Below, piece after piece: positions 6,761 through 60,368 of a DNA stretch of 64,000 nt (its first letter is position 1; each line of letters opens with the position of its first letter). The position numbers were made by a program, and so were the translations under genes. The notes beneath the pieces were generated by a model. The model searched no databases. It was not told the origin of the DNA and saw only the letters and a list, made by a program, of their open reading frames with translations. Origin of the DNA: a virus; IMG/VR virus record IMGVR_UViG_3300005663_001084, positions 88,929 to 152,928 of that record; one strand, written 5' to 3'.

Positions 6761-6789
6761 TTATCGGATTGGAGGGGCTATTTCGGCAG
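6761..6789 (-). promoter_or_regulatory. conserved promoter-like element
   Basis: TTATCGGATTGGAGGGGCTATTTCGGCAG, about 20 nt upstream of the pyrC-like start. Confidence 0.55.
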
Positions 6790-6869
6790 AAGAATTTTAG
6801 TCGGTCATGCCCGTCAAGTTCTTAGACGGGTCCTCCACAACGTACCACGTCGGGGGCCGCGCGACCGTG

Positions 6870-7751
6870 CTATTCGTCGCCCAATCCGTTATCCGCTGGG
6901 TCCGGATCTGTAGCATCGGGTTCGAGGGCGGGACCTGGGTCGTCCCCGGGATCGCTCTCGGGATCGGGGATGACTGGGATCGCTTCTTTCGTCGCGGATG
7001 GTTCCGTTTCTTTGTCTTCCCCTCCTGGTACATCATCTTTTTGAAGTCCATCGTCGCTGTCTCCCAGGTCTAACGGCGGTGCGCTGCCCAAGTCCAGAGG
7101 CTGTACCTCGTGGGTCTCCGGCGGCTCGTCGCCGGGGTGCATGATCTGTGTGCCCTCCGGACCCTTGCGATCCGGAATGCCGTACTCGTTGGCCTCGGTC
7201 TCGTCCATCGGGTGGACCATATCGGTGAACCATTCCTGGATACGGCGCATCATCTCAGGTGGCTCGACGGCCTCGAACTCCATTTCGAGGTCCATCATCT
7301 TCCGGTTCTTGCGGCCGTCTTTGCCTTCAGCCTGCGGCCCGAACTTCACGCGGATGGAAGCGCGCTCGACAGTCTTCATACCCTTGTCGTACTGATGCTT
7401 CTTGACGCTGGCGGCCTCCAGGCTGACAGACATGCGGACCTTGAGCCGCTTCAGTTGCAGTGTGGATGGCGGGACCAGAGCGATGAGCGGGATGTCGATG
7501 ACGCGGCCCGACGGCATCCGGAGCCGCTTCTCGATGGGCTCACCGGACTCTTCATCGAAGTAGTGGTTGAGGACGTTTACGAAGTGCTGGCCGAGGATGT
7601 CCTGAGTGGACTGCGCAACGTGCTGCATGCCACGGGCGAGGTCCGCCAACCCGTGTACACCGGGTGGGTTTTCCTCGCCCGCGTCGGCAGCGGCCTTGGA
7701 ATCGCCGCCGCCATTGTCATCGTCTTTCTTACTCCAGGGCCACCAGGACAT
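6870..7751 (-). CDS. hypothetical protein (family-2 paralog) with D/P/E-rich low-complexity C-terminus
   Basis: The core RVIDIPLIALVPPSTLQLKRLKVRMSVSLE can be aligned to the next gene. Confidence 0.5.
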   Translation of the reverse strand: MSWWPWSKKDDDNGGGDSKAAADAGEENPPGVHGLADLARGMQHVAQSTQDILGQHFVNVLNHYFDEESGEPIEKRLRMPSGRVIDIPLIALVPPSTLQLKRLKVRMSVSLEAASVKKHQYDKGMKTVERASIRVKFGPQAEGKDGRKNRKMMDLEMEFEAVEPPEMMRRIQEWFTDMVHPMDETEANEYGIPDRKGPEGTQIMHPGDEPPETHEVQPLDLGSAPPLDLGDSDDGLQKDDVPGGEDKETEPSATKEAIPVIPDPESDPGDDPGPALEPDATDPDPADNGLGDE

Positions 7752-7754
7752 AAG

Positions 7755-57550: not shown

Positions 57551-57560
57551 CGCCAGAGTT

Positions 57561-60257
57561 TTAGTCGGCGGAGTCGACTGCGATGCCGTCCGGGGTGACC
57601 TCGACCTTGCCGATGAGCCCTGCGATCCTGTCGCCCACGCCAGGGCTTCCGGCCAGGAGCTTCTCCAGCACCCCGGCCACGCCTGTGCCCTGGAGCAGCG
57701 CGTGCGGCCCAAGGGCCTCCATCAGCTTCTCCATGAAGACCTTGTCGCCAAAGTTGTTGATCGCTTCGACGAGGCCCTCGCGGACCGCCTCAATCTGCTT
57801 GACCTGGGCGTCCGTCTCGGCGTTCATCAGGGCAACGCGCAGGTCCTGATCGATCTTCGCCGCTTCCTGGCGGTGGTCAAGGCGCAGCTTCTCGCGCACC
57901 AGTTCGGCCTTGATGATCACGTCCTGGCCTTCCTGGGTCTTCTCCTTGGCGTTCAACTCCGCGATCTGCTTGCTGTACATCGTCTCGATCTGGGCCATCG
58001 CGACCTGCCGTATGCTCCCCTCGGCTTCCGTCGCCAGCTTGTTGGTGTGCAAGGCGGTTTCCTGCCGTGCTGTCTCCAACTCCTGGGCGATGATTTCCCG
58101 GCGCTTCTCCGTCTCCAGCTTGTGCTCTTCGGTCCGCAGTTCGAGTGTGCTCTGAACCACGGCATGCTGCGCGGTCATCAGCAGGTCCCCGATGGTGCGG
58201 TCGCCAATGGAGACCTCCAGGACCTCGACGTCGTAGACGCACATGTTGTTCTCGGCGAACGCCCGGCCAGTCCGCTTGCCGCTCTCGCCGGTCTTGCCGA
58301 GAACCGTGTCGCGGATGATGTCCGTGGCGTTGTCGTTGAACTCCTCGATGCCGATCTTCTTGATGGCGCTGCGGAGCATGCTCCGGATGTGGTCGCACAG
58401 GAACTTGACGTAGTTCTCGACCGCGAACCACTTCTCGGTGTCCTCGCCCTCGAAGTTGACCCGGTACGACAGCTTGACCCCGACCTCGACCAAGTCTTTC
58501 GTCTCGGCCTGGACGATGTCGCCGATCTTGTTGTGCGCCACTCGCAGATAGACCGTGCGCAGCAGGTTGTCCGTGTTCTTCGGCTTGCCTCGGGACAGTT
58601 CCAGAACTTCCAGGGTCTCGTCGTACTCCAGGATCGCCGTCTCCGGCCCGCACACGACCTTCCGCTTGCCAGTCTTCGAGACGACCATGATCGCGTAGCC
58701 GGTCCAGACACTCACCGACGGCGCTCCCTCGTACTTCGTGTCGAGGACCAGCATGCGCGGCTTGGTCTGCTGGGTCTTGCGCTCCATCGCGTCGGCGATC
58801 AGCGCCTCATCCGCTGTGGGCTCCTCGTAGGCCGCACCGTACGAACGCGGCATCAGGCTGCGAGTAGAAACGTCCTGGCTGGCAACCTGCGCAGACAGTT
58901 CTGAACGGCCTGCGCGCCTCTTCTCCTTGCGACGCGCCTGCGGTTCGGTGACGAAGCCCGAGGTCTGCTCCTCTTCCTGGAAGGCGGCGAGTTCGGTGTT
59001 GTAGCTGAGCGCCTCCACATTGCCCGGGTACCACAGGCCAACCGTATCCGGGTTGAGGATACGCCGCACGATGACCTGACTGCGCGGGTCGGGGAGAAGC
59101 ATCTTCGGGCCAGCCATCGTGTCGATGGAGCCCGTCAAACGGTTCATCACGTAGCGTGCTTCACCGGCCGGGATGGCTACGGCGTAGTGAACTTCGTGGT
59201 CGCCGTAGCGCAGGACTGCGTGTTCCGGGCGCGGGAAGTAGATCGCCTGCTCCCTGCCCGTGATGAAGATCTCTTCGCCTTCCTCGTACGAGCGCTCCTC
59301 CCCGGTCTCGGGATCGATTTCGGTATACGGGTCGATGACCTTGATGTACAGGCCGCTGATCTCGTTGAGTTCGATGGCACGGAAGCGGCGCGTCTTCTTG
59401 TCGCCCCTCCGGTCCGGATCGATGCGCTGAACAAAGCGCTCGGTCGGCTTCGGGAAGACCACGTCCGGGCCGCGCGTGTAGCGCTTGTTGCCGTTCTCGT
59501 CGAGCAAGATGCAGAACTCCAGGCGCTCCAGGGTGACGGCCTGCCGGACGTACTTCAGGTCGTCGTCGACCAAGACCTCGATGCCCGTGGGCGGGATGTA
59601 GAAGGACACGTCCGTGCCCCGTACGACCAGAAGCTGTCCCATCGTCAGAGCGCTGGGGTTGATGCCGAACAGGCCCTTGATGGGCGCAGCGTCTTTCACT
59701 TCGGACTGCTCGGGGGCGTCCTCGCCTTCCTTCTTGGTCTCGTCGCCCTCCTCGCCTTCGGCCTCGCCGGTGGAATCCTGGGTCACGGGCTGCACAATGG
59801 CCTGTCCCCAGTTCGCCTTGGCGGCGTCCGCGTTGTACACGCGGCAGATCAGGTACTCGTTGGAACGAAGCTGGTGGCCGTCAACCGCGTCAGCGGTCTG
59901 GCCGGGCCACAGCGGGAACGTAACCGGACCGGGGATGTTGATCTTCCGCCCTTCGTCCAGGTCGACCATGGCGTTGGCCGCGCCGGTCGGTGGGTGGGGC
60001 TTATCGCCAGAGGCCGGATTCTGGAGGACCATATAGGACCCCTCGTCGACCTTGGCGAACTGCTGGATGGCCCGCCGGAGGTCGCACTCATCGAAGTCGC
60101 CGTCTGCGTACACGACCGGGCGGTCGGTATCGGCAAGACTCGTCTTGTGCGGCCCCACGTAGCAGTTGATCTGGCCCTTGGTGCTGTCAAGAACCAGCGC
60201 GTACTGGCGCGGATTCAGCACCAGATCCCGTTCCTCGCGTCTTCCATCCTGTGGCAT
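57561..60257 (-). CDS. major vault protein (MVP) homologue
   Basis: The N-terminal repeat NPRQYALVLDSTKGQINCYVGPHKTSL matches MVP repeat 1 ([26 protein letters not shown]) and there are further about 55-aa repeats. The shoulder domain HNKIGDIVQAETKDLVEVGVKLSYRVNFE...NYVKFLCDHIRSMLRSAIKKIGIEEFNDNATDIIRDTVLG can be aligned to MVP [30 protein letters not shown]...[40 protein letters not shown]. The C-terminal E/Q/A-rich cap-helix follows. Start chosen at MPQDGRRE (AGGAG SD); alternative ATG at 60314. The track start at 60338 is a GTG inside the promoter motif. Confidence 0.7.
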   Translation of the reverse strand: MPQDGRREERDLVLNPRQYALVLDSTKGQINCYVGPHKTSLADTDRPVVYADGDFDECDLRRAIQQFAKVDEGSYMVLQNPASGDKPHPPTGAANAMVDLDEGRKINIPGPVTFPLWPGQTADAVDGHQLRSNEYLICRVYNADAAKANWGQAIVQPVTQDSTGEAEGEEGDETKKEGEDAPEQSEVKDAAPIKGLFGINPSALTMGQLLVVRGTDVSFYIPPTGIEVLVDDDLKYVRQAVTLERLEFCILLDENGNKRYTRGPDVVFPKPTERFVQRIDPDRRGDKKTRRFRAIELNEISGLYIKVIDPYTEIDPETGEERSYEEGEEIFITGREQAIYFPRPEHAVLRYGDHEVHYAVAIPAGEARYVMNRLTGSIDTMAGPKMLLPDPRSQVIVRRILNPDTVGLWYPGNVEALSYNTELAAFQEEEQTSGFVTEPQARRKEKRRAGRSELSAQVASQDVSTRSLMPRSYGAAYEEPTADEALIADAMERKTQQTKPRMLVLDTKYEGAPSVSVWTGYAIMVVSKTGKRKVVCGPETAILEYDETLEVLELSRGKPKNTDNLLRTVYLRVAHNKIGDIVQAETKDLVEVGVKLSYRVNFEGEDTEKWFAVENYVKFLCDHIRSMLRSAIKKIGIEEFNDNATDIIRDTVLGKTGESGKRTGRAFAENNMCVYDVEVLEVSIGDRTIGDLLMTAQHAVVQSTLELRTEEHKLETEKRREIIAQELETARQETALHTNKLATEAEGSIRQVAMAQIETMYSKQIAELNAKEKTQEGQDVIIKAELVREKLRLDHRQEAAKIDQDLRVALMNAETDAQVKQIEAVREGLVEAINNFGDKVFMEKLMEALGPHALLQGTGVAGVLEKLLAGSPGVGDRIAGLIGKVEVTPDGIAVDSAD

Positions 60258-60337
60258 GTCTTGCTCCTGTTGTTTGTTCCACTTGTCGTGAAGTCGGCCT
60301 CGACGTCGGGCCATCTGGAAACTTCCGTGACTACGCA

Positions 60338-60368
60338 CTTATATCATCGGAAAGCGGTGGCTATTTCA
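60338..60368 (-). promoter_or_regulatory. conserved phage promoter-like element (copy upstream of MVP)
   Basis: TTATATCATCGGAAAGCGGTGGCTATTTC matches the recurring motif; lies just after the terminator. Confidence 0.55.

Follow-up and report, generated by a model that had tools for sequence, protein, structure and literature searches.

The 64-kb window analysed here, the whole stretch of DNA from positions 88,929 to 152,928 of IMG/VR virus record IMGVR_UViG_3300005663_001084, belongs to an uncultured jumbo phage with a genome of ~225 kb that is distant from phage T4. Conserved elements recur in the gaps between its genes, and these fall into two promoter classes (termed A and B) that have only their downstream half in common. 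We somewhat favour the view that both classes serve a bacterial-type multisubunit RNA polymerase and that class A requires a factor specified by the phage. Taken separately, the proposition that the elements are promoters for a multisubunit polymerase is very probable, and the chances are about even that class A needs a non-housekeeping sigma factor or another phage factor. The sequence read comprised the window and ~10 kb beyond each of its ends, or ~84 kb of the genome. Coordinates in the flanks are given with the prefixes L117 (upstream, at the right end of the window) and L121 (downstream, at the left end).

An earlier note on this DNA had described at least 11 copies of one promoter-like element, all lying between genes and oriented with the minus-strand genes downstream of them. 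Each of the 11 listed sites exists, but the set is mixed and comprises seven class A promoters, three class B promoters and one promoter of a different type. Ten of the 11 have the core yCCGATAw-N6-T|R in common (the bar marks the predicted transcription start), and all ten lie on the minus strand between genes. When read on the minus strand, the longer string AATAGCC-N8-CCGAT is present in six exact copies and one with a single mismatch, all seven again on the minus strand and intergenic. With up to two mismatches allowed there are 9 matches, compared with 3.4 +/- 1.7 in shuffled sequences, and none of 100 shuffles reaches 9. AATAGCC alone occurs six times on the minus strand of the window and never on the plus strand.

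Two weight matrices were used to examine these elements. The class A matrix has 44 columns (-43 to +1) and was built from 11 copies, seven in the window and four in the flanks. Its leave-one-out scores range from 27 to 52 bits, whereas the best score in each of 200 shuffles averages 2.8 bits and never exceeds 19. No position on the plus strand of the window scores above 0 bits. The scores of the three class B copies under this matrix lie between -11 and 18 bits, which is not compatible with the single element originally proposed. The core matrix has 18 columns (-17 to +1) and was built from both classes. At a cut-off of 13 bits it regains all ten window copies and finds no match on the plus strand of the window. 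It adds one minus-strand match, at 33121 (13.4 bits), which is an A/T run at the score cut-off within the block upstream of the promoter at 33066.

Nearly all genes of the window are on the minus strand, and beyond its left end both the genes and the motif switch strand (copies L121:13355 and L121:11148). Start codons or Shine-Dalgarno sequences follow the copies at set distances. Furthermore, terminator-like structures precede two of them, a 14-bp hairpin with a T-run before the copy at 60350 and a T13 run before that at 23811. The elements thus behave as promoters, given their strict co-orientation with the genes, their intergenic location, these distances and terminator-like structures, and their conservation in a related phage (see below).

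The class A consensus reads aATTT.cCTG...AAATAGCCc.ccCaATCCGATAA.AtaagT|R, or in short form aATTT-cCTG-N3-AAATAGCC-N8-CCGATAA. A TTGACA-like -35 element is absent. Counted from the predicted +1, the AAATAGCC box occupies -30 to -23, the CTG -36 to -34 and an A/T tract -43 to -39. The box is invariant in sequence while neighbouring positions vary. If a TAnnnT hexamer is instead taken as the -10 element, no -35 element lies 16-18 bp from it, and the CTGnCn is 20 bp away. A weak dyad symmetry (ATTT...AAAT, centred near -35, with 43% complementarity compared with ~25% expected) stems from the A/T tracts only, and AAATAGCC has no inverted partner.

The three class B copies, anchored at 19572, 22180 and 33066, have a different upstream half. 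A 30-45 bp A/T-rich block is followed by TTGACT or TTGCAA, a 17-bp spacer and TATACT, TATAGT or TAGTAT. The earlier note had remarked on the A/T-rich extensions at these three copies and on a longer block common to two of them, and both features are confirmed. In a scan with the sigma-70 consensus the top matches are TTGACT-17-TATACT (10 of 12 positions) and TTGCAA-17-TATAGT. As judged from sequence, class B promoters are canonical sigma-70-type promoters with an UP-like element. They have the -35 element, spacer, -10 element and A/T-rich DNA at -40 to -60 that such promoters call for, and class A fails on this comparison. An alternative reading of class B, cTTG(A/C)AA-N12-CCCGATA(T/G), brings it as close to sigma-32 promoters as to those of sigma-70. 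Sigma-32 (RpoH) recognises TTGAAA and CCCCATWT, a C-rich extended -10 element (PMC6687850). Class B resembles this arrangement in its TTGAAA-type -35 element and in a C-rich extended -10 element followed by AT. It differs in having G for the fourth C and A(T/G)nn for the W-T of CCCCATWT, and no link to heat-shock genes is seen.

Part of the class B A/T-rich block, GGAAAATCAYATAAA, is nearly invariant. It is present in two paralogous promoters of the window (22190-22231 and 33080-33120, minus strand) and in the promoter of an orthologous gene (L123:9944-9975) in a phage whose protein is 47% identical. Such a block is tighter than a generic UP element requires, and it may be a protein-binding site.

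The remaining listed site, at 18686, had been taken for a degenerate copy. A promoter is indeed present there, but it is a separate, leaderless sigma-70-type promoter (18685..18721, minus strand; TTGCGT-17-TATACT-7-ATG) whose CCG is 3 nt off the core register and which both matrices miss. An operator-like inverted repeat, CTATCT-N4-AGATAG (18722-18745, minus strand), adjoins its -35 element on the upstream side.

Conservation could be assessed in one related phage contig (GCA_044343095.1; L123/L124), whose portal protein is 79% identical and whose version of a 514-amino-acid window protein is 47% identical. This relative (L123) keeps promoters upstream of orthologous genes. Ahead of the orthologue of the 514-amino-acid gene, which follows a class B promoter, the A/T block GGAAAATCACATAAA, TTGAAA, CCCGATAGTAT and the GGGACAG leader are all conserved, although the 12-bp spacer between the -35 element and CCCGATA has diverged. 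Ahead of the orthologue of a 222-amino-acid gene, which follows a class A promoter, AAAT..., CCGAT, the 8 nt after it and GGAGG are retained. A third conserved promoter in L123 carries no CCGA and reads TTGCAC-17-CATAAT.

More distant phages were also inspected. No motif is present in L116 (portal 54% identical, 48% GC), and L198 (portal 59% identical) and L199 have plain sigma-70 promoters only. This absence says little because the stretch of the window that is syntenic with the distant relatives also lacks the motif. Scans of two sequence collections, neither of which contains the source contig, gave no further holders. AAATAGCC-N8-CCGATA yields only single matches in IMG/VR, at chance level, and AAATAGCC-N5-R-ATCCGATAW yields 72 single matches in a metagenome collection compared with ~70 estimated by chance. 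On inspection the contexts proved unrelated, and none of the sequences encodes a relative of a window protein. A homologue search with the 222-amino-acid protein returned only the protein itself and one 1.1-kb contig, on which the gene directly follows another gene with no promoter between them.

The position of the transcription start can be approached through the bases that follow the core. The eighth base after CCGATA is T in all three class B copies and in 10 of the 11 of class A, and the ninth (position 9) is a purine in every one of the 11 class A copies and in two of the three of class B. In three class A promoters (23797, 28164 and L117:621), the ATG that opens the downstream open reading frame (ORF) falls exactly at position 9, and no Shine-Dalgarno sequence precedes it. 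No alternative in-frame start exists for 43 codons at 23797 or for 21 codons at L117:621, and none at 28164 has a Shine-Dalgarno sequence. Moreover, the G+C content by codon position in the first 40 codons of these leaderless ORFs, counted from codon 1, equals that in the rest of the gene. At three more class A promoters (6753, 35123 and L121:11134), AGGAGG begins exactly at position 9 and precedes the start codon by 12-13 nt. These placements are hard to explain unless RNA synthesis begins at position 9 or 1-2 bases before it, and the ninth base after CCGATA is thus the probable start. With +1 set there, CCGATAA spans -14 to -8, the invariant A is at -11, and -7 carries no information. The sigma-70 register, in which the start lies 7 nt beyond TAnnnT, would begin the RNA inside or after the ATGs and would therefore fail, at least for the three leaderless genes.

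In this register the core looks like the -10 element of a group-3 sigma factor and not like a TATAAT hexamer. In the cryo-electron microscopy structure of Pseudomonas aeruginosa sigma-28 on the fliC promoter, the recognised elements are (-36)TCTAAAG(-30) and (-15)GCCGATAA(-8), with A-11 flipped out and -7 unread (PMC12784957). The phage yCCGATAw at -15 to -8 resembles the sites of sigma-28 factors (FliA, SigD, WhiG) in its A-11, its unconserved -7 and its C-rich extended -10 region, and this holds for all ten window and all four flank copies if the predicted register is right. The likeness does not extend to the -35 region, where class A has CTGnCn and class B has TTGACT or TTGCAA. Furthermore, the first base in the phage element is C or T and not G, the phage genes are not flagellar, and no FliA-like gene was seen in the window or the two 10-kb flanks.

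Phage T4 offers another comparison. Its early promoters combine UP, -35, TGn and -10 elements with extra consensus positions, and its middle promoters keep an excellent sigma-70 -10 element, which they require, while a MotA box centred at -30 and 12 +/- 1 bp from the -10 element replaces the -35 element (PMC2988021). Here, too, two classes occur in a phage with a T4-type portal, class B being early-like and class A middle-like. Exactly 12 bp separate the end of the class A box from TAnnnT, and class A precedes tRNA, nucleotide-metabolism and recombination genes. However, the box AAATAGCC is unlike wwwTGCTTtA, the -10 element seems a poor TATAAT, and the predicted start is 2-3 nt too far upstream. 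In six of the 11 class A copies CCGA runs directly into TAnnnT, and the leaderless ATGs would then lie upstream of the expected start. The late promoters read by SPO1 gp34 (CGTTAGA-N17-19-GATATT) are likewise phage-specific and bipartite with a GATA-type -10 element (GATATT compared with GATAwn). They differ in upstream element and spacing, as the 8-bp box here is only 8 bp from CCGATA, and the window showed no homologue of gp34 or gp33. By eye, the spacings or cores of MerR-type promoters (20-bp spacer), sigma-54 (-24/-12) and extracytoplasmic function sigma promoters, integration host factor sites and DnaA boxes do not fit the aligned copies.

We propose that a bacterial-type multisubunit RNA polymerase would read both classes through their common half, yCCGATAw-N6-T(-1)|R(+1). 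Class B would consist of strong promoters that the unmodified host holoenzyme could probably use, and would thus be of early type. Class A, having no usable -35 element, would depend on a factor encoded outside the window that reads the box at -30 to -23. Candidates for this factor are a group-3-like sigma whose spacing would be unusual and an activator that, like T4 MotA, recognises a box near -30. Genes of middle type would then be under class A control, namely the tRNA array, genes of nucleotide metabolism, those for the SbcCD nuclease, an ATPase and a regulator, and a small RNA; the transcripts would be leaderless or begin with a Shine-Dalgarno sequence. By analogy with T4, the genes behind the two classes point to class B as the early class and class A as the middle one. 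A phage-encoded or phage-modified sigma for class A is plausible, and there is a precedent for a phage-borne group-3 sigma, as large Bacillus phages encode homologues of sigma F and sigma G (PMC3601020). Only tentatively do we go further and suggest that the device is a divergent group-3-like sigma, or a sigma-remodelling activator unrelated to MotA and AsiA, in an architecture not described before, whose site at -30 to -23 lies ~4 bp closer to a sigma-28-like -10 element than any known sigma region-4 site.

The earlier note had reported no sigma factor or RNA polymerase gene in the window, and this was confirmed at the sensitivity of Pfam and PHROGs. Among essentially all window ORFs there is no match to sigma, gp55/gp33, MotA, AsiA or RNA polymerase families. 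As class A shows little dyad symmetry and no factor family was detected in the window ORFs or in the Pfam annotation of the flanks, the factor is predicted to lie outside the sequence read, in the other ~140 kb of the genome. Three proteins encoded on the minus strand of the window are DNA-binding candidates: an XRE protein (9455-9799), a protein with three helix-turn-helix domains (51507-52337) and a protein with an N-terminal CxxC...HxxxxH zinc finger (52213-52992), whose L198 orthologue has a weak match to Ros/MucR. The latter two ORFs overlap by ~125 nt directly upstream of the terminase gene, and the proteins could be a small terminase or regulators.

An alternative to the proposed two-class arrangement is that the host housekeeping sigma reads every copy, with CCGA an extended -10-like feature (G at -14) and the upstream half of class A a product of recent cassette duplication, so that no phage factor would be involved. 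The perfect 17-bp spacing from TTGACT or TTGCAA to TAnnnT in class B, the occurrence of TAnnnT directly after CCGA in 6 of 11 class A copies, and the presence of other sigma-70-type promoters without CCGA in this phage and its relatives all accord with this account. It would nevertheless place the start 2-3 nt past the ATG of three ORFs that have no Shine-Dalgarno sequence and whose first 40 codons are coding-like. Five of the 11 class A copies have no T at -7, no -35 element lies at 16-18 bp, and the invariance of the box amid varying flanks points to selection over recent copying. Overall, we consider this explanation unlikely. A T4-style appropriation, in which host sigma-70 holds the -10 element, a phage co-activator remodels region 4 and AAATAGCC, in place of a -35 element, serves as the site of a monomeric activator resembling MotA, is distinctly unlikely. 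The T4-type portal speaks for it, as does a box that ends at MotA-box spacing, 12 bp upstream of TAnnnT (PMC2988021), and that, being no strong palindrome, suits a monomer. On the other hand, the box is unrelated to wwwTGCTTtA, the -10 element does not look like an excellent one for sigma-70, the predicted start is off that register, and no MotA or AsiA family match exists in the window. It is improbable that the upstream half of class A acts mainly as an operator, for example for the XRE protein (9455-9799), over ordinary promoters, although such a role would be compatible with the two-class explanation that we prefer. Autoregulation is conceivable since the XRE gene is itself under a class A promoter, and a dyad symmetry does exist; but this symmetry is weak, confined to A/T tracts and without an inverted partner for AAATAGCC, and class A has no independent -35 element and so would be no ordinary promoter without a factor.

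The earlier note had preferred a phage-encoded RNA polymerase or sigma factor. Promoters for a phage polymerase, either of the single-subunit T7 or N4 type or of the phiKZ-type multisubunit kind, would be long, highly conserved and adjacent to short leaders, as these elements are, and in a jumbo-sized genome of which ~84 kb was read such a gene might be located elsewhere. Promoters of the T7 type are contiguous from about -17 to +6, with conservation highest next to the start. The phage elements contain no such contiguous block of ~20-23 bp across the start, as conservation is bipartite, strongest from -43 to -8, and the positions from -7 to -2 are variable and nearly uninformative. There is also no N4-type hairpin, no polymerase gene is present within the 84 kb read, and the three class B copies have the make-up of textbook sigma-70 promoters, UP-like blocks included. 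These features make a phage polymerase very improbable, and a single-subunit enzyme in particular misfits the pattern. Still more remote is an archaeal virus promoter, with AAATAGCC as a TATA box centred at -26.5, CTGnCG as the transcription factor B recognition element (BRE), AT at -11/-10 as a proximal element, T|R as the initiator, and leaderless mRNAs. The geometry of class A would fit if the start is the ninth base after CCGATA, leaderless ORFs are present, and the sample is sediment from Loki's Castle. However, AAATAGCC is a poor TATA box, and class B is G+C-rich at -30 to -23, without an A/T box there, and has TTGACT-17-TATACT with its A/T-rich DNA further upstream. In the related phage the spacer has diverged while the -35 and -10 elements on either side of it are kept. 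Strong Shine-Dalgarno sequences (AGGAGG and GGAGAC) occur commonly, and a hairpin with U-run terminator is present. Moreover, homologues of the 514-amino-acid protein were found only in bacterial genomes (33, compared with no archaeal genome).

Several observations weigh against a phage-specified factor for class A or against the register on which it is modelled. In the related phage the class A box is altered and reads AAATCCAC, and just one related contig is informative. No homologue of sigma, gp55/gp33, MotA or AsiA was found in the window ORFs or in the Pfam annotation of both 10-kb flanks. The start register derives from just three leaderless ORFs and three AGGAGG placements, and the early and middle timing from gene content alone, with most genes having no known function. 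In sigma-28 promoters, TAAA at -34 to -31 is 15 bp from GCCGATAA, whereas the phage (T/G)AAA is 12 bp away and inside the box; we know of no sigma factor that uses this 12-bp spacing to the -10 element. Finally, class B also fits plain sigma-70 recognition. TAnnnT would then be the -10 element at a 17-bp spacing, transcription would begin 2-3 nt further downstream, at the conserved GGGACAGG, and CCGA could be no more than an extended -10-like feature.

Class A promoters in the window are anchored (first C of CCGAT) at 6767, 10073, 23811, 28178, 29607, 35137 and 60350, and those in the flanks at L117:607, L117:7694, L121:13355 and L121:11148. Behind them lie an amidohydrolase-like gene and the gene of an XRE regulator, several small ORFs, a structured RNA of ~97 nt and part of the tRNA array. 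The positions below are all on the minus strand. The promoter at 6753..6796 (58.7 bits, leave-one-out 52.0) has its box at 6776-6783 and CCGATA at 6762-6767, and its start is predicted at the leading A of AGGAGG, position 6753. The gene behind it (5668-6741, 357 amino acids) heads an operon. The product has HxH...DHAPH motifs and, by sequence reading, is dihydroorotase/amidohydrolase-like, with no Pfam match. Another gene of the window (22226-23200) encodes a dihydroorotate dehydrogenase (Pfam, E 4e-52), and the two would be auxiliary genes of pyrimidine synthesis. The promoter at 10059..10102, an GAATAGCC variant (predicted start 10059; 53.1 bits), precedes an 80-amino-acid ORF (9796-10038) and then the gene for the XRE-type helix-turn-helix protein (9455-9799). 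That at 35123..35166 (59.2 bits) again has its predicted start, 35123, at the first A of AGGAGG, ahead of the GTG start at 35111 of the 222-amino-acid gene.

Two window promoters lead into leaderless genes. At 23797..23840, after the T13 run, the predicted start (23797) is the A of the ATG of a 138-amino-acid gene (23381-23797). At 28164..28207, an AAATAGCA variant, it (28164) coincides with the first base of the ATG that opens gene 27715-28164, downstream of which lie a metallo-beta-lactamase/Apyc1-like gene and an AAA ATPase gene. The former (26915-27736) encodes a metallo-beta-lactamase fold of the anti-Pycsar Apyc1 family (E 1e-22, above the curated cut-off), and within its class A operon it is a candidate counter-defence gene. 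The promoter at 60336..60379 directly follows a strong hairpin and T-run terminator (~60385-60425) and precedes genes for a vault-shoulder/SPFH protein, a deoxynucleoside monophosphate kinase-like protein, SbcD and SbcC. The first of these (57561-60338, ~900-925 amino acids) combines a major-vault-protein shoulder domain (E 6e-28), a vault repeat and an SPFH/Band-7 domain, which is unusual for a phage.

The promoter at 29593..29636 (predicted start 29593) departs from the earlier observation that a gene starts 6 to 80 nt after every copy. No gene start lies within 80 nt of this copy (29607), and a hairpin and U-run RNA follows instead. This putative small RNA or leader (29497..29593, ~97 nt) is predicted to form two hairpins, the second followed by a U-run, with a minimum free energy of -46.7 kcal/mol (z = -4.3), and it has no significant match in Rfam. 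On the basis of its modelled fold, the RNA is a candidate phage small RNA, or an attenuator ahead of a 47-amino-acid ORF that is zinc-ribbon-like.

A weak class A-like site (12.7 bits) is also located within gene 47112-47816, at 47223-47280, ~235 nt upstream of the gene for an 802-amino-acid glycosyltransferase, and may be an internal promoter or a chance match. The portal and terminase module has neither a class A nor a class B promoter.

Class B promoters, likewise on the minus strand, precede small ORFs without known function and the 514-amino-acid protein, which has a CDHC zinc motif. The promoter at 19558..19635 consists of the A/T-rich block, TTGACT (19586-19591), 17 bp and TATACT, with CCCGATA overlapping, followed by the leader GGGACAGGACAGGAGAC; the genes behind it are at 19066-~19530 and 18739-19032. 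In the first of these, none of the codons ATG, GTG and TTG is suitably spaced from GGAGAC, and the gene may start with ATT at 19530. The promoter at 22166..22231 has the GGAAAATCATATAAA block, TTGCAA-17-TATAGT, CCCGATA and the leader GGACAGGGACAGGAGAC ahead of the ATG at 22141. That at 33052..33120 has the GAAAATCACATAAA block, TTGCAA-17-TAGTAT and CCCGATA ahead of the 514-amino-acid gene (31488-33032).

Leader repeats of the form GGACAGG(G)ACAGGAGAC, which the earlier note had also picked out, are indeed present, at 22141-22165, 19530-19557, 19033-19065 and 9284-9300 (minus strand). GGAGAC(A) before start codons is enriched on the minus strand (43 occurrences, compared with 12 on the plus strand). 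Cluster K mycobacteriophages have 'start-associated sequences', which these repeats recall.

With ARAGORN, the window yields 11 tRNA genes and L117:1-10500 yields 14; two of them are common to both, giving 23. They form arrays at 60441-63998 of the window and at L117:7514-9995, and the class A copy at L117:7694 lies between tRNA-Phe and tRNA-Ala. Rfam matches were to tRNAs only. Free-standing HNH genes occur among the tRNA genes (60796-61362 and 62413-62895). One tRNA with the anticodon CTA (L117:859-935, ~9 kb beyond the right end of the window), called 'Pyl', is amber-suppressor-like. Stop-codon recoding through this tRNA was considered and rejected, as 11 of 65 window genes end normally in TAG. 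LAGLIDADG inteins are located in the PIF1-type helicase of this phage (L117:2630-5290) and in the terminase of a relative (L198:6284-9997).

The phage derives from a marine sediment metagenome of Loki's Castle (PRJNA259156; locus tags LCGC14_01651xx). The window has a G+C content of ~60% and carries a T4-type portal gene (47820-49520) and a large terminase gene (49513-51570), together with genes for SbcC, SbcD, glycosyl- and methyltransferases, dihydroorotate dehydrogenase, a metallo-beta-lactamase/Apyc1-like protein, an AAA ATPase and helix-turn-helix proteins. The portal is at most 29% identical to that of any deposited phage, no near-identical DNA is present in the phage collection, and no mention of this phage was found in the literature searched.

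Phage-specific promoter classes are already known. As far as we have established, the combination of a sigma-28-like -10 element with an invariant box at -30 to -23 has not been described. For this phage the motif provides a ready map of transcription, with the boundaries of units, a probable division into early and middle genes, three leaderless genes and a candidate small RNA. Should an ordinary host holoenzyme read class A, the elements would be a routine phage promoter set. If the predicted factor exists, it would add a further way of redirecting host RNA polymerase to those known from the T4, SPO1 and phiEco32 models, and would form with its promoters a compact, orthogonal promoter-factor pair.

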